Numbered from the stretch's first letter, positions 1,088 to 24,648 are shown. The stretch is 24,648 bases of DNA from a virus (IMGVR_UViG_2684622670_000019:1-24648), one strand, 5' to 3'. The notes: generated by a model from the sequence alone, not told the origin. Made by a program: numbers and translations.

Positions 1088-1450
1088 ATGTTAAAGCTAT
1101 TTGCAAAGTACACCTCGATTGGTGTGCTAAACACACTTATACACTGGGTGGTTTTTGGTGTTTGTATCTATGCAGCGCATACAAATCAGGCTCTGGCAAA
1201 CTTCGCAGGTTTCGTTGTGGCAGTGAGCTTTAGCTTCTTCGCGAATGCAAAATTCACATTCAAAGCATCGGCTACAACGATGCGCTACATGTTATACGTC
1301 ACGTTCATGGGAGCGCTTAGCGCTGCTGTTGGATGGGCTGCTGATAGATGCGCACTTCCCCCAATCATTACTCTTATTACCTCCTCCGCCATCAGCCTGG
1401 TGTGCGGTTTCGTCTATTCAAGGTTAATTGTCTTTAGGGGTGCGAAATGA
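1088..1450 (+). CDS. gtrA: GtrA, bactoprenol-linked glucose translocase (flippase), O-antigen conversion
   Basis: 120-aa small multi-TM protein ([24 protein letters not shown]...) matching GtrA of Shigella/Salmonella serotype-converting phages from memory; first gene of a three-gene operon with ATGA overlap to gtrB. Confidence 0.85.
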
Positions 1451-2370
1451 AGATATCTCTTGTAGTTCCTGTCTTCAATGAAGAAGAGGCGATACCAATT
1501 TTTTATAAAACGGTACGTGAATTCGAAGAGTTGAAGCCATATGAAGTAGAAATTGTTTTTATAAATGATGGTAGCAAAGACGCTACTGAGTCAATTATTA
1601 ATGCTCTGGCTGTTTCAGATCCTCTAGTTATTCCTTTGTCATTTACTCGCAACTTTGGTAAAGAACCAGCATTGTTTGCAGGGTTAGACCATGCTACTGG
1701 AGATGCCGTGATTCCAATTGATGTTGACCTGCAAGACCCGATTGAGGTTATTCCTCATCTTATTGAAAACTGGCAGGCTGGCGCCGATATGGTGCTGGCA
1801 AAGCGTTCAGACCGCTCTACAGATGGGCGTCTGAAGCGCAAGACAGCAGAGTGGTTTTATAAGCTTCACAATAAGATCAGCAATCCGAAGCTCGAGGAAA
1901 ATGTTGGCGATTTCCGGCTGATGTCCCGCGATGTAGTGGATAATATTAAGCTTATGCCAGAACGCAATCTTTTCATGAAAGGCATTCTTAGTTGGGTTGG
2001 TGGGTCTACAGATGTAGTTGAGTATGTCCGTGCTGAGCGGATAGCCGGCAGCACGAAATTCAATGGGTGGAAATTATGGAACCTCGCACTTGAAGGTATA
2101 ACAAGTTTCTCCACTTTCCCTCTGCGTATGTGGACTTATATTGGGCTATTCGTAGCTGGAATGGCTCTTTTATATGGCACATGGATGATTATCGACACCT
2201 TGGTGTTTGGAAATCCGGTTCGCGGTTACCCATCACTTATGGTGTCCATTCTCTTCTTAGGCGGAATTCAGCTTATAGGAATTGGCGTACTTGGTGAATA
2301 TATAGGAAGAATTTACATAGAGTGCAAAGCTAGACCTAGATTTATTATCAAGAGAATGAAAAATGAATAA
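1447..2370 (+). CDS. gtrB: GtrB, bactoprenol glucosyltransferase (GT2 family)
   Basis: 307 aa; N-terminal GT2 signature ([10 protein letters not shown]...INDGSKD...IDVDLQDP) and C-terminal TM helices; translationally coupled to gtrA and gtrC. Confidence 0.88.
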
Positions 2371-3793
2371 AACAATCAAAATCAACTTCTACATACTATT
2401 TATTATTTTGTTTTTTATTATAACATGTAATATTTACTACTATGATGATGTATTTAGATCGTATTGGGGATATTATGGTTGGTCTGAAGATGGAAGGCCT
2501 TTTGCAGATTTATTCTATAAATTATTTATTTTCTTTAGATCTGAAAGCATACCAGATATTTACCCGCTACCACTAATTTTAACGTCTGTGCTTCTTGTTA
2601 TATCACTAACAAATGCATTGCAAAATATACTATCAAAAGATGGGGTTATAGTTAATATAACTTTTGCAATATTTATGCTTAACCCTTTTCTTTTGTCTAA
2701 TATGCTATTTAGATATGATGGTGCATTTATGATTTTATCTATTGCACTTTCGGCTATTCCGTTCATTTTTACAAAAAGTAGAACATTCGCCATATCATCA
2801 CTACTGTGCCTAACAATATCGCTTGGATTGTATCAAGCCTCAATAAATGTGTACATTGGGCTTGCATCAGTAGTGGTTGCAATGGAAGCATTGAAAGGGG
2901 AAAAGTTTACATCAATAGCCAGCAGAGTGCTATTATCTGTTACATGCGTAGTCTCTTCATATGTTATATACTCAAAATTAATACTTGAATCATTATCTTT
3001 AAATAATAACTTCTCGAAATATGCTCAAATAGTTGAATTAAATAAAGGAGGAGTCATCAATGTTTATGAGAATATAATTAACGCAGTTAAAAAAATTGAT
3101 GTTGCTCTTCATAGTGGTATTGGAACACCTCTTTATATATTTTTATCAATAATAGCCATATCATCTGTGTGTGTTGCCATTAAACGAAAACAATTTCAGT
3201 TACTATTTTTTATTGCTATATCTATTTTGGGTTGTTTCTTTTCTTCTTTTGGTGTGTCTGTCTTTGGGAAATCGCCAGTATTTGTGTCAAGGATATTTAT
3301 CGGATTTGGTGTTTTTATAATGGCAGTTCCTTTGATTGGCTCAGCACTTCTTAATTGGAAACTTAATTACTTACTATCATTATTCATTGCAATTCCTATG
3401 CTGTCCATCTTTTTTGCCACCATTAATGCCTCAAGAGAGGAATTTAAATTCCAAAACAATTTATCACTTCAAATGATTAATGATATTAATCATAGCAAAG
3501 CTAAATATCTCGACTTTGTTGTTATTGATGGCTATGCGAAGAACTCTTCTGTTGCAAGCATAAATAAGAAAATATTTCCCGTAATATCTGATATATTGCC
3601 TCCTGTCTTTACAAATAGATATGATGGTGGGGTTTTCACATTGATGAGAAATGGACTAAAAGATGTTGTTAGTGCTGAGTCATCAGCTGCAGACAACGCG
3701 GTATCAATATCAGATGATGGAAATCTAATTTCTGACAATAATATATATAGCATTCATGCGACCAAAGATATTATTGTAATAAAATTAAAATAA
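2363..3793 (+). CDS. gtrC: GtrC-type serotype-specific O-antigen glucosyltransferase (polytopic membrane protein)
   Basis: 476 aa, many TM segments, extremely AT-rich; third position of the gtr operon, overlapping the gtrB stop by 8 nt. Family members are highly divergent, so the call is by position and topology. Confidence 0.7.
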
Positions 3794-3857: not shown

Positions 3858-5921
3858 CTAAGAAAAAATCCAATTACCATACATTCCAGTTATTTCACTA
3901 TACATGCCTTCTTTATTTTTTAATTTAATCCAAGCGCCGAATTCAGTGGTGGCTACTTGCGTTACTTCTGAAGAGTTACTTACAAACCTTATATTTGCTA
4001 CACCTATTGCTCTACTTGGTGATGAGATTGTCATAGCTCTTATTATTTTTAACTCTCTGAAATCACCAGTGCTACTTGCGATTATATCAATATCATTAGT
4101 GCTATGGTTAAATATAATGGTGTTATTTAACAGCTTTGTATTTTGAAAAGATGTTATTGTGGCAATCCCTCCAATAAATCCTCTTATCTGGGCCGGGCCA
4201 GTATCTCCACTATCATAGGCTAATGATGTGGTTATATTATCTTCCTCCTTTCCTATATGTATATCAATAAAGTACTCTTTTAAACTAATACCAGCCAAAA
4301 CTAAAAATGTTGATATAGTCGATGTACATTTTTTAATAACCAGATTCTTAAAATTTCGAGATAACCCGATGCTTATTGGATCAATAGTTCTAGGTAATAA
4401 TCTGATTATTTTATCCCCACCTGCTATAGTAGTTTCATCAACAATTTCACCTATTTCCACAAAAAGGCGGTCATCCCCCAGCATTTCAAAAACACAAAAG
4501 TCTAAAGGAGACGTCTTAAATACCACTCTATCAATTAAGATTTTCCCTATACCATTTCCCATAACTCTAGTAGCTGTCACCCCTCTGTTAGTCACATTCG
4601 TTAGTGTTGTATTCCCCGAGATGATTACATCAGCTACAAGACTGTCAGGGAAAATATTAAGTTCCACACCAGTATACGCACCATTGATGTATGGGTTTGA
4701 GATTTCACAATTAATCAACCGAGGGACAGTGTGTCCAGGCACACTTTCGTCTGCCTCTGGTTCAATATCTATGCCAGATTTCGGCATAGCACCTGTAACA
4801 CCTCCGTAGTCACCAATATTATAAATCTCAGGATTAACTATTATTATATTTTCACCTGACGTTAGGCTTATACCGTTACGCCTGCATTGTTTGACGATCG
4901 GTTTTTCTATATAGATATTTTCTGGAACCGTGCCATCGGTAGTCCCCCACTTCATGCCTATATATATTCCGTCGCCAAACATGTTGGTATACAGTCCACC
5001 AATAATACGAATGTTAGAGGATTGAAGTATTGTAAGCCCCCATCCATGTTCTCCTTCGGATGTGTTTGTTAACCGATCACCTTCCAGTACAGGATTATAA
5101 ATATTTACATTTTTAACACCGTTTGCTATGTAAATGATATGGCTTTGTGGCCTGTTTTGATTTGCTAGTTTTAATGCCCCATCCTTCTCAAATCTTATAG
5201 TGCTATTATCTACGCATCTTAACACAGATTTAAAAGCATCATTTCCAGGGGAAAAAGGGTCTTCATTCACAGCCATCAAGCCTTCAAATGATTTATCTAT
5301 AATGAATTCTGCACCAATAGATGCTGCGGATTCATACGCTTTTTGTAGTGTTTGTGCGTCATTGCAAAAATCAGAAGCATAAATAGAGTTGGTTTTCTTT
5401 AATTCAAATATCCTACCATTTCTGCTCCTGATAATTAATATTCCATCTGGGGTGAGCGTGGGGGTGGATGATTCATAAACATATCGACCATGAATCATTA
5501 CATGATTAAATATATCTGGGACATCCTCTTGCTCTATATTAATAGCAACATATATAAGTTTATTACTTAACTCCCCCCTTAACTGATCAGGATCATACTT
5601 CAGCACATTAGGAAAATAGAACTGCTGCGCACCATACGCATCATATACAGCCATAGAATGGCCTTGCACAGTTACGAATTTAGCAATCTGTCCGTTATAT
5701 ACCGGATATCCAGCAGCGTTAATGATTATTGGTTGCGAAACAGGAACGTGAGAACCGTCTTCATTCTCCACATAAACCTGAATCTGGTTTTCAGGATTTA
5801 CTGGATCAGTGTCAATTTTACCGATATAAATTTTGCCATTGGCAACCGCTTTAAAAGAACGCGCCATAGTGAATAGTTGCGAAGGCATACTCACTACAAC
5901 ATTGGCTGTAATATCTGTCAT
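3858..5921 (-). CDS. Tailspike protein: P22-type N-terminal head-binding domain fused to a beta-helix receptor-binding (depolymerase) domain
   Basis: 687 aa; N-terminal ~110 aa ([11 protein letters not shown]...[32 protein letters not shown]...VLKYDPDQ) closely matches the P22/Sf6/HK620 tailspike head-binding domain from memory; the remainder is a repetitive beta-helix-like sequence. SD GGAG upstream of ATG 5921. Confidence 0.85.
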
Positions 5922-6053
5922 TTAATTTGCTCCAGATACAATGAATCGCCGCAGCGTAGCTACGGTTGGCGTTTGTTACATACCGAAACGGTACGATTGT
6001 TGATTTGTACAGTAGGTTTTACGATGCCATTCCACCCATTTGGTGAGGCATTG

Positions 6054-6311
6054 ATGATGTACAGCAAATACGATGAGGCGCAGTTCCACTTGAGGCTTAC
6101 GCACGAGTTGCACGCTAAGATTAAGCAGCGTGCAAAAATGAATAACAGGTCTATCAATTCCGAAATTGTGGCTACGATGGAAGAATCTCTCTCCAAACCA
6201 TCACCTGTAAGCGGGTATCGTGATGAAGAAGAGAGACTGGCCTCATTAATCTCGGAACGAGTAAAAGAAGTTGCGGCTGAAATTCTAAGGAAAGAAAAAA
6301 CCCGCGATTAA
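6054..6311 (+). CDS. Mnt-like ribbon-helix-helix repressor
   Basis: 85 aa from ATG 6054 (MMYSKYDEAQFHLRLTHELHAKIKQRAKMNNRSINSEIVATMEESLSKPSPVSGYRDEEERLA...) aligns with P22 Mnt (..FNFRMPMEVREKLKFRAEANGRSMNSELLQIVQDALSKPSPVTGYRNDAERLA..). The longer ORF-track start at 5877 is rejected. Confidence 0.75.
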   Translation: MMYSKYDEAQFHLRLTHELHAKIKQRAKMNNRSINSEIVATMEESLSKPSPVSGYRDEEERLASLISERVKEVAAEILRKEKTRD

Positions 6312-6337: not shown

Positions 6338-7063
6338 TTACGCCACATTTGAGCCATGTAGCAGGTGTTGTAGTGCTTTAACGCCTTCAGAATTGTAGCG
6401 GAACGCCTCTACCTGTTTGCTGGAATGCGCCGATTTATCCAGGAAGAACTTCCCGTACTGCTCAGTTTTGAGGTTGTTTGCGTTAGCAATGCGACCAATC
6501 TTGTTGGCCGTTACTCCAAGCTGCTCTGCAACCTCCCCTGCTGAGTAGTAATGCTCTTCTATTGCCGGAAGAGGTATTGCATTAAAACCAACAAGCGGGT
6601 TGATTATACTTGCTGCCGCTGTCTGCTTTGCCTCCGGCGCAAGATTTGGCATCAGATCGAACAGATTGGTAACAGCTTCAACCGTCATTTTCAGTGTTCG
6701 CGCTTGACGATACTCAATAAGTCCACTCGCTGATTTACCGCTTTTAATGTGTGCTTCCTGCATACTTTCAAGTTTGTCTACAAGTGTTCGGCGAACTGCT
6801 TTAGATTCGCGAGCAGCAACACGAAGCGCCTGCTTGATAGTCATGGAGATAACATCAATGTCAGCCCCGTTTTTCCGACCTACACTTTTTGTGTAGGTCT
6901 CGCCCTCCAATTCATCCTCAATTTTCTCGATGAATTTGTTGTTACGTACTGATGGCTCTCCACATAACTTGCGAGCTTCATTAACCATCATCAGAAGGCT
7001 TTGGCTGTCAATGGTTTTATCCGTGACAACGGATCCGATGTTTGCTACATTCTTCAAAGTCAT
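6338..7063 (-). CDS. Antirepressor-like protein with C-terminal KilAC/ANT-type domain
   Basis: 242 aa from ATG 7063 with SD AAGGA 7 nt upstream; C-terminal region (YSAGEVAEQLGVTANKIGRIANANNL...) resembles the phage antirepressor KilAC domain; sits in the ant position of a P22 immI-like operon. Confidence 0.6.
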   Translation of the reverse strand: MTLKNVANIGSVVTDKTIDSQSLLMMVNEARKLCGEPSVRNNKFIEKIEDELEGETYTKSVGRKNGADIDVISMTIKQALRVAARESKAVRRTLVDKLESMQEAHIKSGKSASGLIEYRQARTLKMTVEAVTNLFDLMPNLAPEAKQTAAASIINPLVGFNAIPLPAIEEHYYSAGEVAEQLGVTANKIGRIANANNLKTEQYGKFFLDKSAHSSKQVEAFRYNSEGVKALQHLLHGSNVA

Positions 7064-7100
7064 TAGGCATTCCTTATGTGGTAGTAAGGGTGTGACATAG

Positions 7101-7132
7101 GCCGCCAGCAGCACACTGGCGGTTTTCTTTTT
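7101..7132 (+). terminator. Intrinsic terminator in antisense orientation between the two antirepressor genes
   Basis: Stem ccgccag (7102-7108) / ctggcgg (7116-7122), 7-nt loop, then TTTTCTTTTT (7123-7132) on the plus strand although both flanking genes are on the minus strand. Confidence 0.55.
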
Positions 7133-7151: not shown

Positions 7152-7778
7152 TCAATGAATCCATTCCTCGCCGCGCAGTTTTGTCAGCATTGGCTGAGCG
7201 TTCTTTACGACAAAATTGTTGGTATCAAGATTCTTCATTTCACGAAGAAGTGATTTCTTGGTTTCTTCTGACATATAGCGAGTCTCATATGCAATATCGT
7301 AAATTCTTCCTGAAAGCTCAGAACCAATTTGCTTCATTCCTGGGTAGATGTGTTTGCACATTTGTTGACTCTTCTCCATCCACAATTGTAAGTAGCAGAG
7401 ATTAACCAGTTCTTCGTCAGTAAACTGTTTTGCAATCGGTGAGCATTCTGCCTGCCGATCCAAAATATCCAGCACCCAGCGGCGGAACTCTTTTGCTACA
7501 GGAGTGCGAGCAAACATCGCGATTAGGTGGGCACCGCGTAGTGAGAAAACTCGCACTTTTTTGCGATAATTTCCTGAGGTACTCACTTCGAGTACCTGAG
7601 TCATTCCGGCGCTAAACTCATCGCCATACTTGTTATAAATCATTGTTACTGCACGACTATTTGCGTATTTAAGTGCAGATGCAATATTAGATGATGTAAA
7701 CCAAACACCATGCATATCACGGGTGGGCACCAACTCAACTCCGTGGAAGTTGTAATCTGATTTTGCTACAATATTCAT
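7152..7778 (-). CDS. Antirepressor-like protein with N-terminal Bro-N/AntA-type domain
   Basis: About 208 aa from ATG 7778 with SD AAGGAA upstream; N-terminal half (NFHGVELVPTRDMHGVWFTSSNIASALKY...LIAMFARTPVAKEFRRWVLDIL) fits the Bro-N/AntA fold pattern; immediately downstream of the Arc-like gene. The TTG start at 7883 from the ORF track is rejected. Confidence 0.6.
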   Translation of the reverse strand: MNIVAKSDYNFHGVELVPTRDMHGVWFTSSNIASALKYANSRAVTMIYNKYGDEFSAGMTQVLEVSTSGNYRKKVRVFSLRGAHLIAMFARTPVAKEFRRWVLDILDRQAECSPIAKQFTDEELVNLCYLQLWMEKSQQMCKHIYPGMKQIGSELSGRIYDIAYETRYMSEETKKSLLREMKNLDTNNFVVKNAQPMLTKLRGEEWIH

Positions 7779-7851
7779 GTTAGTTTCCTTGCATACGGTT
7801 ACTGACATAGAGGCCCGGTTTGTGTTCGCGCACTGCCGGGCTTCGCTATTT

Positions 7852-8025
7852 TTATTGGATGACAACATCGCCCTTTGCCTCAAGTTTCATCAATAACTCC
7901 ATTCGATAAGCTATCTCTGCCTGAATTGACCTATGGCATCTTTTTGCTGATTCGCGGATATGTGAATCAACCTTTTCTGTAAAACGAACCTGACGCGGCT
8001 TGATGGAAGATATCTTTTCAGTCAT
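7852..8025 (-). CDS. Arc-like ribbon-helix-helix repressor (57 aa, below the ORF-track cutoff)
   Basis: MTEKISSIKPRQVRFTEKVDSHIRESAKRCHRSIQAEIAYRMELLMKLEAKGDVVIQ aligns with P22 Arc (PQFNLRWPREVLDLVRKVAEENGRSVNSEIYQRVMESFKKEGRIGA); SD AGGAG 7 nt upstream of ATG 8025; first gene of the minus-strand operon. Confidence 0.7.
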   Translation of the reverse strand: MTEKISSIKPRQVRFTEKVDSHIRESAKRCHRSIQAEIAYRMELLMKLEAKGDVVIQ

Positions 8026-8074: not shown

Positions 8075-8103
8075 ATTATTCACTCACACTCAGTATGAGT
8101 CAA
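8075..8103 (-). promoter_or_regulatory. Sigma70-type promoter for the arc-ant operon (Pant analogue) with embedded candidate operator
   Basis: On the minus strand TTGACT (8103-8098), 17-nt spacer, AATAAT (8080-8075); the spacer contains the inverted repeat ACTCA-gta-TGAGT (8088-8100) and a further ACTCA copy at 8082-8086. Confidence 0.5.
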
Positions 8104-8124: not shown

Positions 8125-8766
8125 ATGAATTTTGACGATCAATTCCCATCAAGAGTATCTCTGGCAAGACAGTCCAGGGGTATGACGCAGGCGCAGTTGT
8201 CAAAATTAGCTGGTGTTGTTCAACGTCAAATAGCTGCATACGAGGGTGGTGAGGCTAAACCACGGCTTCGTGTATTGCAGGCATTAGCCAACGCATTAGG
8301 TACTACGGCTGAGTGGTTAGCTCTGGGTGAAGGTCAGGGTCCGGGAACAAAAAACGTCATGCCTGACGTTCTGGTAAAGCAAATACCAATCCTCAAACTA
8401 GATGAAGTTATGCATTACCTAAACACAGGTGAACATTCATCGTCTAGATTTCATCCGGCAATATACAATGTTGGTGACTCTGCATTTGCATTGACTATTG
8501 AAGGTGAAGCTATGACTACAAGTTCAGGCATTAGCTTTCCCAGAGGATCAGTTGTCACGTTCAGCCCTCTAGTAAAAGCTAAAAGCAAAGATTATGTAAT
8601 AGCATCATTGGATAAAGAGCAAATATTGAGCTTCAAACAGGTTTACATTGGTGAAATAGAGACAAACCTAGTATCCCTAAACCCAATGTATCCTAATATT
8701 CTTGTTAGAAATGAAGATGTTAGTATTTTGGCAACCGCAGTTTACCTTGAAATCCCGTTGCTTTGA
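8125..8766 (+). CDS. Lambda-CI-fold repressor (N-terminal XRE HTH, C-terminal S24 LexA-like domain) with catalytic Ser replaced by Ala; predicted non-cleavable
   Basis: 213 aa; HTH (MTQAQLSKLAGVVQRQIAAYEGGEAKP); C-terminal domain aligns with the lambda CI C-terminal domain (VGDSAFALTIEGEAM versus ASDSAFWLEVEGNSM; SFKQV versus TFKKL; LNPMYP versus LNPQYP). Divergent from the arc-like operon, in the P22 mnt position. Confidence 0.75.
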   Translation: MNFDDQFPSRVSLARQSRGMTQAQLSKLAGVVQRQIAAYEGGEAKPRLRVLQALANALGTTAEWLALGEGQGPGTKNVMPDVLVKQIPILKLDEVMHYLNTGEHSSSRFHPAIYNVGDSAFALTIEGEAMTTSSGISFPRGSVVTFSPLVKAKSKDYVIASLDKEQILSFKQVYIGEIETNLVSLNPMYPNILVRNEDVSILATAVYLEIPLL

Positions 8767-8826
8767 TATCCTTTAGGAAGCGACACATTATCATCTGGTA
8801 TCCTGCTCAAAACTAAGGAGGTTGGT

Positions 8827-9054
8827 GTGAAGCGATGGTTCCTCATAATTACTGTTTTCGCGATCATTTACACTATTTTCCCTGCATTAAAAGCACCAAT
8901 GCAAATAATTTCACTAGCAATAATTGCGATTGGTGCTTTCATTGCAGTAGCCGTACTTGTGTTTAAGGTTTTAAAGTTTTTAGTTTGGCTATCAAAAGAT
9001 GATGGATGCAAAGTTCATCAAGAAAAAGAAGGCAAAATAACCAAAGTTGACTAA
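8827..9054 (+). CDS. Small two-TM membrane protein; candidate superinfection-exclusion or abortive-infection effector
   Basis: 75 aa; strong SD TAAGGAGG 5 nt upstream of GTG 8827; two hydrophobic helices (FLIITVFAIIYTIF, IISLAIIAIGAFIAVAVLVF) and a charged C-terminus; AT-rich; directly downstream of and co-oriented with the CI-like repressor; no recognisable homologue. Confidence 0.55.
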   Translation: MKRWFLIITVFAIIYTIFPALKAPMQIISLAIIAIGAFIAVAVLVFKVLKFLVWLSKDDGCKVHQEKEGKITKVD

Positions 9055-11174
9055 CTGTCACTAGCGAGCCATGTAATAATCCCCGTGCGGGCAATGGTTT
9101 TTGCTTCATCTGTTGATAAGGTTTTCTCCCATCTCTTAAATGCCCCAGATTGCATCAGTTTCCTTTCTATTACGCGTCTCACTTCTGCTCTGTCTACTGG
9201 TGCGTTTTGCAGGCGAAATAGCATTGATTTAAACTCAGGAGAAGACAGTAGAGCATCAGCAGCCTTTATCCTGCTTGTTTTCCCTGACATCAATGCGGAC
9301 GTTATCACCCCTGTTGCACCTACACCAGGAAGACCAGATAAGCTTGTAATACCTTCCGCCGCAGCAGCTTTTGAGGCTATTCCATAAATTTTTGCGAGAC
9401 TACCCTTTTCTTTCAGAAAGTTATTAACTTGCTGATCCACAAGGCTACTAGCATACTGCTTACCAGTATTGAGTCTATTCATAGACTTAGCTGCTTGATA
9501 AATCGTATCAAGGCGCTTTGATGCATCTGTGCCAATAGCATCACGGAGAGCCTTCATATTGGCCCCATTGCGTGACATTCCGTTATACCATTTTACAAAT
9601 CCATCAACTCCTAATTGCTGGCCAGGTGATTTGGCATAGCTGGTAAATGCTTTATTCATTGAGGTGAGCGCAACTTCCTGCCGCATATCCTTTGGAATTG
9701 ACTTCATTAATTGCCTAAAGTCACCACCGTTTCCTTTTGCCATATTAACAACAGCACTTTCAACTTTTGGAATTGCTGATTGCTGAAGTTTTCTACCCAA
9801 GACGGTTACAGCATCATCTTCAATGGATTTTCGTTTTTTTACCAACTCCTTACCAAGCGTCCATAACTCCCCTGCGCCATATTTTTCTGCGACAGCCTGT
9901 TGGTCATCTGTTATAGCTGCATATAACTTTTTAAGAACACCTGTTTCTTCATCCTTGAATGGACCAGAGCCTTTGCCAATAGCTTGCCCCACCTGCTTTC
10001 TAGCGAGATCTAAACGCCCATACGTTGGCAAGGTGTTTGGATCAAGTCGGTTCAATGTCCGCTTCATTATTGGAGATAATTCATCAATTCCACCTATGTC
10101 ATCAGCAAAATCCTCTAAAAAATTCAATGTATTAGTTGCCTCAATACGGTCTCTTACTGGAACCTTTTCGGCAATTTTGTTGTAGATGTTATCTGACTGA
10201 TTTTGTAATGATGAAATGGTTTTATCAAAATTATCTGCAAGCCTGTCAGAAACCAGTTGCTTATCAAGGCTTCCCCCAAATGAAGTTATCATTTCATCAG
10301 CTTTTCTTCCTAATTCAGTAATAAAACGCTTATGCGCCTCACTAATCTCTGTTCCAGGGAGACTTGCCACTGCATTATCAAGAGCCCTGACAGCGGGATT
10401 ATTAGAGATCATGCCTGGAGTGGCATAATTTTCCAGTTCTAGCTCACGAATAGCATTTATCGCGTTAAAATCAGGATTAACTTCATCGGCGAAATCTTGA
10501 ATAGCTCGTTGCCCGCCGATAAATTTATTGTCCATTGCGCCAGCAGCTTTCTTTAACGTTGCTTTAGATGATTTACTACCCATCCCTACGGATGAGCGAT
10601 AAATATCTCCGGCACTATTTTTAATTTTTCCTGCAATCTTCCCAAGCGCTGGGCCAACAATCTCTGCTACAGGGCCAGCCACAGCGCCAATAGCAGCGCC
10701 GGAAGCAACATCGCTATTTGTTCCATTGGCTACAATAGCCCCTTCTCCAGCACCAAGCCCTGCGGCGGCAGCCAGCCTTGCCGCCCCTTTCGGAACCTGA
10801 GAAATAATCCCACCACCACTAACAAATGGTGCTGCTTGTCCAACGAACTCACCAACATCTTGTGCGGTTGATGGTTTTGCCGCTAACTTCTGCTGTAGAG
10901 ACTGAATTGCGGCTTGCTCTTCTGGTGTCATATCCTGAAACAGGCCAACACCTTTACCAACATCCATCAATCCACTGAGAACGCCATACATAAAACGGTC
11001 GAAACCGTTGGCTTTATTAACAACATTTTCCTGTCTGGAATTTTCCTCTGGTGAAACCAAAGGTGATTGCTGCTGTTCTGGTTGGGCATCAAGCACAAAA
11101 CCATCAGGAAGCTGTGAGTTATCAGGCTGATTATCGAGAACAAAGCCTTCGGGTAAACCTACATCGGTTGCCAT
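9051..11174 (-). CDS. Ejection (E) protein, P22 gp16-like
   Basis: 707 aa, Gly/Ala-rich; last gene of the gp7-gp20-gp16 ejection-protein block by conserved P22-like gene order. Confidence 0.7.
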
Positions 11175-12502
11175 TGTCCGTTCCTATAAATGAGTTTCTG
11201 ACCAGTTTTAGGGTTCGTTGCCGTCGCGCCTTCTGATATCCCACTTGGCGCAGCTTTTGTCTGCCCATTACCACCTTGTGGTGTAGGCTGCGCTGGGACA
11301 TCGTCAAATAGCTTGGCCTTCCTTCTCCCTAAGCTTTTTTTCAGCCCCTGAGGAATAGTATCTCCATACGTATCCAGATATTCGTCTACCTGCTGGTTAA
11401 ACTGCTGCCCCATAGCGTTGGCGTTAATTTTTGCTGCGTTGACAATGTTATCCCTCGCTTCCTGTGATAAGCCATTCCCTGCATTAAGCTGGTCTACATA
11501 TCCTTTTATCTGCCCCCATATGCCATCAGAGCGCATGACCTGAACCTGTTCACCTTCGCGAACAACTGACTGAGGGTCGAGAGACTTCATGTAATTAAAG
11601 ATAATCCCAAGTTGGGCAGCGCCAGTATTTACCTTGCTAAGGGCTTGCAGAGAGTTTGCCGCCGCTCTGACAGAGTTATAATTTTTGCCAAAATTGGTAA
11701 TGTCAGAATTTAATCCCTTAATTAAGTCTGCTGACGGCTTACCTTTTTGCCCCAGCTCCATTAGCTTCAATCCCATCTCATCTGAGTGCATTTGTGCCCG
11801 CTGAGCCCTGTCTAGTTGAGCGTTCTGGATATTTGCCCATCCTCTCGCATTCTCCATATCAGCCTGACGGATGCTTTCATCCAATCGCCCTTTCTCAAGT
11901 TGGCGACCAACCATCTTATCCTGATAATCCAGCATTTTATCCGGACCAACAGCCCCTAGCGTCATAGTAGTCAGCATGTGTGATAGCTGCTCTGGATTCT
12001 GGATACCTGTCTGAATCATCCAGTCAGCATTCGCCCCCACGCGATTTAACCTGTCCTTGTTGTCAGTAATGAATTTACTGTAGGCTTCCGGTCCCTGAGA
12101 AAGAGCGACGTTAGCCCTCATGGCTAAATCGCCCATATCGTTGCGTTGCTGCTCATTAAGACCGGAAAACGCCTGTTGTGCCTGTGCAACAAACGCTGGA
12201 TTTTCCTGGGCAAACTTAAATAGTCCCGATGGATCACCAGAAGCCCATGCATCAGCATGAACCTTATTGAACGCACTAATAGCTTTCTGTTGCTGTTCCT
12301 GCTTATAAATATCAGCAACTCCAGCCAGACCACGTAACGCGGTCAGACCAACGTTATTTGCACCTGATCGAGCCAGTTCATTGTTTTCGCGGATCAGACC
12401 AAGCGTTGCGTTAATGTCGCTTGCCTTTGGCGCATTCTCGTTTTGCGCACCAATGCCAGCCAGAAAACCACCAGAATTAATACCCTGTTGCCACGTAGCC
12501 AT
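11159..12502 (-). CDS. Ejection protein, P22 gp20-like
   Basis: 447 aa; position between gp7 and gp16 homologues; Gln/Ala-rich composition typical of E-proteins. Confidence 0.65.
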
Positions 12503-12512
12503 TGATTACCCC

Positions 12513-13202
12513 TTAAAACAACGAGCCAAGCAGACCAAGACCAGCACCGATACCAGCACCCCACGGAGTTGATAGCTCGAGAGCACTGGCTATGCCACCA
12601 CCCAAAAGCGCACCGGATGCAGCACCACTAACCCCCTGCTGCAATGCTGACGGTCGGTTGGCGTTTGCCGCAGCCAGCGCCGCGCTTTGCTGTGAAATCT
12701 GACTCATGTTGTTGGCATATGTTTGCCCGGCGTTTGCCTGCCCCTGAAGAGCGCCAAGACCGATATTTGCCAGGTTGTTGTAATTGTTCATTTGTCCAGA
12801 TAGCCATTGCTGACCAAGCGTTGGTGCGATTGTTGCTAACTGATTACTGGTTGCGGTGGAACCCAATCCACCTGTTGCTTCCGCTGCCGCCAGACTCTGA
12901 TAGCGCGCCTGACCAGCAAGGTCTTTGTACTGCTGAGAGTTGTAATACTGGTTAAGCGCCTGACCTTGCCCCTCCAGAGACGATAAGTTCTCGAGGCTGC
13001 CGACATACTTCTCAGCCAGAGGAGTAAACGGTTTCAGGTTGTTCATGATGGTGTTGAACTGCTGATTTTGCAGGTCTGCGGAATACTTCTGGGCTTCTGC
13101 TGCATACTTTGCGCTTTTATCGGCTCCACCTTTCCCGCCTTTTTCAGGGCAATAAGGTTCCTCGCCGCGCAGTTTTCTGCCCAGCTTAAATGCATATAAC
13201 AT
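12513..13202 (-). CDS. Ejection protein, P22 gp7-like
   Basis: 229 aa (same length as P22 gp7); N-terminus MLYAFKLGRKLRGEEP...; C-terminal Gly-rich hydrophobic tail. Confidence 0.7.
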   Translation of the reverse strand: MLYAFKLGRKLRGEEPYCPEKGGKGGADKSAKYAAEAQKYSADLQNQQFNTIMNNLKPFTPLAEKYVGSLENLSSLEGQGQALNQYYNSQQYKDLAGQARYQSLAAAEATGGLGSTATSNQLATIAPTLGQQWLSGQMNNYNNLANIGLGALQGQANAGQTYANNMSQISQQSAALAAANANRPSALQQGVSGAASGALLGGGIASALELSTPWGAGIGAGLGLLGSLF

Positions 13203-24079: not shown

Positions 24080-24547
24080 TCATCGAAGGCATTGCGTCCT
24101 GATGTATTCCTGAAGCGTTCTCAGTGCTGTTTGGTCGCGGATAATTCCGTCCCGGACACCGAGAACGTTTCGTCCAGCAACTGGAGAGAGTTCGACGGTG
24201 GCATCATTGCCCATGCCGGAGGCGCTGGAGGTTTCGGCTGAGGATGGCACAGGGCATTTTCCTTTGACGAGCACCCTGCCACCATTATCAAGCTTGCGCC
24301 GAAGAGCATCATTTTTAGCGTTCGCATCAGCTAACTCCTTCGTGTATTTAGCATCGAGTGCATCAGCAGAACGCTGGCGCTGCTGCATGTCAGTAATGGT
24401 GGCGGTCGCCTGCTTCAGCTCACTGACTTTTTTATCGCGCTGCTCTTTGTAGGTCATGGCGTTATCACGGTAATGATTAACAGCCCATGACAGGCAGACG
24501 ATGATGCAGATAATCAGAGCGGAGATAATCGCGGTTACTCTGCTCAT
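24080..24547 (-). CDS. Rz: Rz i-spanin (lysis)
   Basis: [39 protein letters not shown]...[11 protein letters not shown] closely matches lambda Rz; its ATG overlaps the endolysin stop (ATGA). Confidence 0.88.
24121..24327 (-). CDS. Rz1: Rz1 o-spanin lipoprotein, embedded in Rz in the +1 frame
   Basis: [23 protein letters not shown]...[13 protein letters not shown]: lipobox (VAGC) and proline-rich region as in lambda Rz1; entirely within Rz. Confidence 0.75.
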
Positions 24548-24648
24548 TGCTGCCCCCACAAACAGACTTCACGCTCAATCTCACGACGGGTCATCAGCCC
24601 TTTCCATTGCTTACCGCCAGCGTATGTCCAGCGCCGTAGCTGATCACA
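24544..24648 (-). CDS. Endolysin, C-terminal fragment (gene continues beyond the window edge)
   Basis: Minus-strand translation ...[34 protein letters not shown]-stop resembles the C-terminus of lambdoid phage lysozymes; stop at 24544-24546. Confidence 0.6.

Follow-up and report, generated by a model that had tools for sequence, protein, structure and literature searches.

The stretch of viral DNA IMGVR_UViG_2684622670_000019:1-24648, which has a length of 24,648 nucleotides (nt) and is called the window in the following, is a P22-like (Lederbergvirus) prophage, and the subject of this analysis is a small gene within its "ant moron". This gene, an open reading frame (ORF) of 75 codons with a GTG start which is termed ORF75 here, occupies positions 8827-9054 of the plus strand. 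It follows a co-oriented repressor gene (8125-8766, plus strand) at a distance of 60 nt, and the terminator scan yielded no terminator-like site between the two. Its stop codon at 9052-9054 meets the stop codon at 9051-9053 of a convergent gene (9051-11174, minus strand) for the 707 amino acid (aa) ejection ('DNA transfer') protein at the position of gp16, with an overlap of 4 nt (9051-9054). ORF75 thus adjoins the 3' end of this gp16-type gene and is oriented against the late operon. The reading frame with its strong Shine-Dalgarno (SD) sequence, the place directly downstream of a repressor gene, and the overlap with the gp16 gene had all been pointed out in a preliminary description of this DNA and were found again. 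ORF75 very probably is a real membrane-protein gene in the slot which is held by sieA in phage P22, and it is a moron-type gene, one of many interchangeable cassettes of this slot.

The SD sequence TAAGGAGG at 8814-8821 is the full 8-nt complement of the 3' end of 16S ribosomal RNA and is separated by a spacer of 5 nt (TTGGT) from the GTG at 8827. Leader, SD, and start codon together form a stretch of 33 nt at 8797-8829 of the plus strand (GGTATCCTGCTCAAAACTAAGGAGGTTGGTGTG) which is identical in 32 of 33 positions to the 5' end of P22 sieA (TTTTTTCATGGTATCCTGCACAAAACTAAGGAGGTTGGTGTG), with GTG as the start codon in both. The single mismatch is CTC in the window versus CAC in P22. In P22, sieA and gene 16 are convergent and 22 nt apart, and a promoter PsieA is annotated in the record. 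The earlier placement of ORF75 at the sieA position is therefore borne out by the shared leader, SD, and start. A promoter-like site, TTGATA-N17-CATTAT, was located at 8763-8791 of the plus strand by consensus match only, and its -35 hexamer overlaps the stop codon of the repressor gene. A structured regulatory leader RNA was considered and rejected, as the leader folds no better than shuffled sequence (z = 0.68), and no RNA structure sequestering the SD of ORF75 was found in it by the same measure (z = 0.68).

A similar arrangement is that of prophage HS1 of E. coli HS, where the repressor (WP_001008290.1) and the Arc-like protein (WP_021518013.1) are those of the window and the repressor gene is followed by an ORF of 212 aa. 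The product of this ORF shares 28% identity with P22 SieA (E 9e-23), carries the sequence FNRYPGEARKFNK, and is a type-B SieA. At galK, and with no more than 106 bp of the DNA preceding it, the HS1 gene has been found to confer full exclusion of P22-like phages (Leavitt et al. 2024, PMC10883804). These 106 bp are near-identical to window positions 8721-8820 and include the site at 8763-8791; by this indirect analogy the window stretch upstream of ORF75 should be able to drive a cassette. In nine other viral contigs (L009, L012, L014, L015, and L019-L023 among the loci compared) ORF75 is found behind a complete P22-type PsieA sequence, and there the P22-type stretch includes the start of a divergent gene of 121 aa. 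This 121-aa ORF (L009 3605-3970, minus strand) has an HExxH-like motif, HECAH, and diverges from the slot with 30 nt between the two start codons, so each promoter has to lie inside the other gene. P22 itself (L007 about 3862-4212) keeps the 5' part of the 121-aa ORF in a stretch which is unannotated in its record.

IMG/VR was then searched for the leader in the form GGTATCCTGNNNAAAACTAAGGAGGTTGGTGTG. At least 119 viral contigs (L032-L150) matched, and the ORF after the GTG reaches a stop codon in 118 among those listed. The ORFs of these 118 contigs belong to at least 12 unrelated families with lengths of 62-164 aa, SieA included, and among the matches listed 11 of 12 cassette families start with a hydrophobic membrane or signal segment. 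They comprise hkcB-like proteins with a transmembrane (TM) segment and a coiled coil (at least 23 loci), a 129-aa signal-peptide protein (at least 20), a 109-aa protein with TM segment and coiled coil (at least 13), type-A SieA (at least 11), ORF75 and a 62-aa two-helix ORF, PHROG 21338 (at least nine each), a 140-aa soluble protein and a 103/106-aa protein with N-terminal TM segment (at least eight each), a 116-aa four-helix protein (at least six), an anchored protein of 149 aa (at least five), a 99-aa signal-peptide protein (at least four), and a YobH-like protein of 68 aa (at least two). In the commonest arrangement per family, again among the matches listed, the distance from the end of the ORF to the gp16 stop ranges from -4 to +57 nt. 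The 62-aa ORF occupies the slot of phage JEP4 (L002 5028-5216) after the same repressor and leader, in a stretch which is left empty in GenBank.

Upstream modules and cassettes reassort freely, and from this the leader is recognised as the 5' recombination joint of the slot. The position of ORF75 is filled by at least 11 other families at the same leader and between conserved neighbours, as is typical of a moron, and from the promoter-like site and the analogy with HS1 an independent expression of ORF75 is conceivable. Variability of the whole region is already known: the stretch from gene 16 to gene 9 of P22-like phages has been described as the hypervariable 'ant moron', with 10 types in 16 genomes (PMC2629481). 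A description of the pattern of leader plus cassette was not found in the papers searched.

Evidence for ORF75 as a gene was obtained from its variants. Twenty-three IMG/VR contigs carry ORF75, 22 of them in full length, and together with the window these yield 17 DNA alleles, all 17 of which keep the reading frame. The 29 variable sites split 17/2/10 over codon positions 1/2/3, and the depletion at position 2 (p = 9e-4) is the signature of replacement of one hydrophobic residue by another. In one group of alleles the GTG start is replaced in place by ATG, preceded by an SD and an upstream gene that differ from those of the window, and one variant has an in-frame duplication of three codons (LKF). 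When 1.84 billion representatives were scanned exhaustively with HMMER, one true homologue was obtained beyond the cluster of ORF75 itself, P0022, with 75 aa and 57% identity; a repetitive hydrophobic sequence of 722 aa from the same scan was dismissed as a compositional artefact. P0022 lies on a P22-like metagenomic contig (L151), where it overlaps by 4 nt with the stop of a gp16 homologue which is 78% identical to that of the window. At a nucleotide identity of 69%, the ratio of nonsynonymous to synonymous substitution rates (dN/dS) between ORF75 and P0022 amounts to 0.29 over the whole gene and to 0.16 for the C-terminal tail, and the synonymous excess is significant (p about 1e-3). Judged by this comparison, ORF75 is under purifying selection.

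One might still suspect a chance open frame in AT-rich spacer DNA behind the conserved sieA leader, a non-functional ORF, as ORF75 is without family annotation and the ratio of nonsynonymous to synonymous polymorphism (pN/pS) among close alleles is about 1, a value drawn from only about 12 substitutions, which are too few to be informative. This is hardly tenable in view of the low dN/dS at considerable divergence, the length of exactly 75 codons in the homologue, the in-frame indel variant, the independent SD and ATG at the same codon, and the position-2 depletion.

From its sequence ORF75 is predicted to be a small inner-membrane protein with two hydrophobic helices. The Kyte-Doolittle scan places helix 1 at codons 4-20 (WFLIITVFAIIYTIFPA; 8836-8886, plus strand), directly after the N-terminal MKR, and all substitutions between alleles in this helix are hydrophobic-conservative. 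The intervening P19-ALKA-P24 separates it from helix 2 at codons 25-54 (8899-8988, plus strand), with a core of residues 25-46, in which the small residues A34, G/S36, and A37 are conserved and are followed by an amphipathic stretch, KVLKFLVW. The charged C-terminal tail, codons 55-75 (8989-9051, plus strand), is the best conserved part and predicted to be cytoplasmic. It contains five lysines or arginines and five aspartates or glutamates, and its consensus is LSKxDxCKVxQExxGKITKVD; 15 of its 21 residues are identical to the homologue, which has 57% identity overall. Following the positive-inside rule, a hairpin with both termini in the cytoplasm may be inferred. A reading of helix 1 as a signal peptide was judged unlikely, as proline 24 would be at the +1 position of the sole plausible cleavage site (after ALKA).

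The GC content of ORF75 is 34.6%, which is lower than that of the window (45.8%) and of the genes on either side (42-44%). At codon positions 1 and 2 it amounts to 0.46 and 0.29 versus 0.56 and 0.43 in gp16, and at codon position 3 (GC3) to 0.29 versus 0.33 in both neighbouring genes. The deficit lies in positions 1 and 2, and the gene is AT-rich mostly because the protein is rich in isoleucine, phenylalanine, leucine, valine, and lysine. The AT-richness noted earlier thus stands, while its interpretation as a sign of recent acquisition was rejected by this codon-position analysis, GC3 being nearly equal to that of the neighbours.

ORF75 had also been called an orphan. This is appropriate in that it has no characterised relative, but it does belong to a family of its own, PHROG 7294 of unknown function, to which it gives a full-length match (E 3e-49, residues 1-75 versus profile positions 1-75 of 75), and it is annotated in RefSeq as WP_000832789.1, a 'hypothetical protein'. 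Of 5426 complete E. coli genomes 34 carry it, as do three sequenced phages. A word-indexed protein search retrieved relatives from E. coli and Salmonella, all at least 84% identical. Homologues were found in P22-like phages only and none outside prophages, and a search of species-representative genomes retrieved neither ORF75 nor the leader. Upstream of ORF75 at least four contexts other than the repressor gene occur. The junction of repressor gene and ORF75 is present in one of the 5426 complete E. coli genomes, strain 13TMH22; the two came together by a rare recombination and do not form a conserved operon. In 13TMH22 (L001 4829-5809) an IS621 element of the IS110 family lies just past the Arc-like gene and beside codBA, and the prophage appears to be truncated at the tailspike side. 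A mosaic junction was also observed inside ORF75, where window positions 8827-8883 were compared with positions 4001-4057 of six contigs (L024-L029). The first 58 nt contain 11 of 11 differences in L024 and L025 and 10-12 of 13-15 differences in L026-L029. These contigs have the ATG start, the other SD, and a co-oriented gene for a 186-aa TM protein upstream, and the remainder of the gene and gp16 are near-identical to the window.

The protein encoded at 8125-8766 is the repressor of the immI region, an analogue of Mnt, and not the main immunity repressor, because phage JEP4 has the same gene at 99% identity plus a separate and normal immC region with C2, cro, and c1. The gene occupies the position of mnt in P22 and is divergent from the arc-like and ant genes. 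At residues of about 126-130 the protein reads GEAM instead of GDSM as in P22-type C2; the catalytic serine is thus replaced by alanine and the lysine (FKQ) is kept. The sequence suggests that RecA-stimulated autocleavage cannot inactivate this repressor. At least five cassettes are found after the same repressor, namely ORF75, the 62-aa, 99-aa, and 109-aa ORFs, and SieA-B, and the repressor is part of the context without a dedicated partnership with ORF75. The arrangement had been likened to cI-rexA-rexB of lambda, with which it shares a membrane-protein gene downstream of and co-oriented with a repressor gene of the HTH/S24 type, one expressed in the lysogen, and no terminator in between. 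This resemblance turned out to be loose: the repressor belongs to the immI region, a RexA-like partner is not present, upstream contexts vary, and the adjacency is as rare as stated above. RexB, moreover, has four helices, unlike ORF75.

ORF75 and the gp16-type gene are linked at all loci in which the neighbouring sequence was readable. The C-terminal type of gp16 is readable in eight of nine ORF75 loci of the leader scan among the matches listed and is the same in all eight, and three inspected loci of the protein scan have the same 707-aa gp16 type with the same overlap. Few sequenced phages have this type, which is not assigned to any Pfam family. Its relatives are found in EC.P3, E212, and S.Kent 1-2-1 with at least 97% identity, and in Kapi1 with 52%, where two signal-peptide proteins are found at the slot position. 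Other phages in the collection yielded no full-length match to it, but partial matches, mostly at about 25-33% identity. Distant relatives are often annotated as 'transglycosylase'. The linkage is expected from geometry, because the 4-nt overlap leaves no intergenic DNA for recombination, and the same gp16 C-terminal type is also paired with two other cassettes among the matches listed. As evidence of a functional pairing of ORF75 with gp16 the linkage is weak.

For the function of ORF75 we tentatively lean towards exclusion by analogy to SieA, a proposal which falls somewhat short of being probable: ORF75 would be an inner-membrane protein expressed in the lysogen which excludes superinfecting phages at the step of DNA entry. 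SieA of P22, which is of type A, and SieA of HS1, which is of type B, both reside in the inner membrane and block DNA injection, and escape mutations map to gp16 and gp20 (PMC10883804). In the lysogen ORF75 would be transcribed as a continuation of the immI repressor transcript, from the promoter-like site at 8763-8791, or in both ways. The protein would form a hairpin in the inner membrane, its two termini cytoplasmic, and, like SieA, hinder the conduit which gp7, gp20, and gp16 of an incoming P22-like phage form across the envelope, and thereby the superinfecting DNA would be kept out. Contacts would likely be made by the conserved tail in the cytoplasm and by the face of small residues on helix 2.

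With SieA, ORF75 shares the slot between gp16-type and immI genes in the interval from gene 16 to gene 9, the orientation, and the 32 of 33 positions of leader, SD, and GTG; with HS1 sieA it shares in addition the upstream repressor gene. Like SieA, ORF75 is predicted to be an inner-membrane protein, and the segment after the last helix is its best conserved one, as in SieA. The hkcB family of HK620, which includes gp14 of epsilon34, and the 62-aa ORF of JEP4 have the same leader, start, and position and are likewise packed tightly on the 3' end of gp16. The other cassettes of the slot are mostly small envelope-targeted proteins, of which the 62-aa ORF has two helices as ORF75 does. In sequence they are unrelated to ORF75 (hhalign probability 0.2 versus the 62-aa family), and among the slot cassettes listed the overlap with the gp16 stop is unique to ORF75. 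Small membrane proteins of other phages, Imm of T4 and gp15 of HK97, prevent the entry of DNA and have an expression of their own apart from the structural operon, and in this they resemble what is proposed for ORF75. They differ in belonging to other phage groups and other genomic contexts, and against Pfam Imm_superinfect ORF75 gave no match at E <= 0.1.

A number of observations weigh against exclusion at DNA entry by a hairpin protein. There is no detectable homology of ORF75 to SieA: BLASTP gave E 3.5 with the P22 protein and E 0.037 with the HS1 protein, in a hydrophobic stretch only, and hhalign a probability of 0.2, where the comparison of P22 SieA with HS1 SieA as positive control gave a BLASTP E of 9e-23. 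The SieA motif FxRYPxEAxxFNK, which is cytoplasmic and located near the C-terminus, is absent from ORF75 and present in HS1 SieA in the form FNRYPGEARKFNK. With two helices in 75 aa ORF75 is also much smaller than SieA with its three to four helices in 162-212 aa (PMC10883804). The genes of the ant moron have non-identical functions according to Villafane et al. (PMC2629481), and as one of the slot cassettes is a soluble protein, a position in this hypervariable moron does not fix the function. Matches of ORF75 to Pfam, NCBIfam, PADLOC, or PDB families were not obtained, the sole Pfam hit at E <= 0.1 being DUF3754 with E 0.083, which is below the cutoff of that family. The two-TM protein of the preliminary description is recovered as two hydrophobic segments in the hydropathy scan, but the hairpin is not borne out by AlphaFold2, which on a shallow alignment yielded one long helix with a predicted local distance difference test score (pLDDT) of 75 and a predicted template modelling score (pTM) of 0.37, a model that says little about the topology. 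For expression in the lysogen, finally, the basis is a consensus match together with analogy.

Many small bacterial proteins with one or two helices modulate membrane proteins, and ORF75 might thus be a lysogenic-conversion factor unrelated to phage defence which modulates an inner-membrane transporter, a sensor kinase, or an envelope-stress component of the host and so gives the lysogen an advantage in the gut or in the animal it inhabits. The conserved cytoplasmic tail, which suggests a specific protein contact, would be in line with this, as would the differing functions of genes in the ant moron (PMC2629481) and the one slot cassette that belongs to the host-type YobH family. A conversion factor is rather unlikely, however, given that the cassettes of known function in this slot are exclusion proteins only (PMC10883804), that ORF75 is strictly linked to one type of ejection protein and confined to P22-like phages, and that it has no homologue outside prophages. 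The same linkage, with one gp16 type and overlapping stops at every readable ORF75 locus and in the diverged homologue, could be taken to mean that ORF75 serves the phage's own cycle, either because it is needed for or regulates the rare gp16 type or because convergent transcription tunes late read-through into the tailspike gene. Yet the pairing of this gp16 C-terminal type with two other cassettes makes ORF75 dispensable for the type, and a linkage is expected from the 4-nt overlap alone. Orientation and sieA leader indicate prophage rather than late expression, and purifying selection on the protein counts against a purely transcriptional role, so that a function of this kind is quite improbable.

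Class II holins such as S68 of phage 21 have about 70-75 aa, two TM segments, both termini in the cytoplasm, and a charged C-terminal tail. By hydropathy and charge distribution the size, helix number, inferred topology, and tail of ORF75 would fit this class, and ORF75 oligomers which depolarise or permeabilise the inner membrane upon infection could kill the cell before phage release, as an abortive-infection effector would. The face of small residues in helix 2 (A31, A34, G36, A37, A40) suits helix packing, and matches to PHROG 14607 'holin/anti-holin' (E 0.083) and the PADLOC '4TM effector' (E 0.052) point in the same direction. Both of these matches are below significance, however, and the helices consist almost entirely of aliphatic residues and lack the faces, polar or rich in glycine, that are typical of pore-lining holin helices. 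ORF75 is situated in the ant moron outside the lysis cassette (Rz, 24080-24559), and its orientation is opposite to that of the late operon. It is accompanied by no sensor or partner gene, the contexts upstream reassorting freely, and constitutive expression of a pore-former from a perfect SD should be toxic to the cell. A holin-like effector is therefore considered unlikely. Of the two roles which the preliminary description had suggested, exclusion is kept as a reasonable lead in view of the sieA slot, and abortive infection is not, as a sensor partner is not present.

The proposal of exclusion at DNA entry can be extended, in a speculative and rather doubtful manner, to the slot as a whole. 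The sieA position of P22-like phages would then be a dedicated plug-in expression site with leader, SD, and GTG as its joint, into which mini-proteins are swapped that each jam the conduit of gp7, gp20, and gp16 in a different way. ORF75 would be the smallest blocker, matched to its rare gp16, and specificity would co-evolve with the type of ejection protein. SieA is the sole characterised occupant of the slot, and what exists for its mechanism so far is a model in which it interferes with the conduit of ejection proteins. Should ORF75 and other cassettes exclude phages as well, they would constitute unrelated tiny probes of how the ejection-protein channel of podoviruses assembles across the envelope, and the surfaces at which gp16 and gp20 are vulnerable could be located by means of escape mutants. 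Such genes in prophages of E. coli and Salmonella would decide which P22-like phages enter, transducing and therapeutic ones included. If ORF75 acts otherwise, it would be ordinary, one more small membrane protein of a prophage. What is of note beyond ORF75 is the slot itself, a candidate exclusion family which can be tested with the established assays for SieA.

In the remainder of the window, the left part holds the genes gtrA, gtrB, and gtrC (1088-3793), an O-antigen glucosylation module with a low GC content of 36.8% which adjoins the tailspike gene. In this module the prophage carries a second system of exclusion or conversion, one that acts at the level of the receptor. The gene for a tailspike with P22 head-binding domain (3858-5921, minus strand) is followed by an Arc/Mnt-type ribbon-helix-helix gene within 5877-6311, an ORF of 258 aa without family match (6338-7114, minus strand), a Bro-N/P22AR antirepressor gene (7152-7883, minus strand), a small Arc-like gene (7852-8025, minus strand), and the HTH_3 plus Peptidase_S24 repressor gene preceding ORF75. 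On the other side of the gp16-type gene lie the genes for gp20 (Inj_translocase; 11159-12502, minus strand) and gp7 (12513-13202, minus strand).

A sar-like antisense RNA was not detected in the window by Rfam, which gave no match there at all, and control of the antirepressor in this prophage probably differs from that in P22. As called, the Arc-like ORF and the antirepressor ORF, the latter with a TTG start, overlap by 32 nt. The divergent promoter region between the Arc-like and the repressor genes contains a 13-bp palindrome, ACTCAGTATGAGT, at 8088-8100, which overlaps a promoter-like site of the minus strand at 8103-8075 and is a candidate operator.

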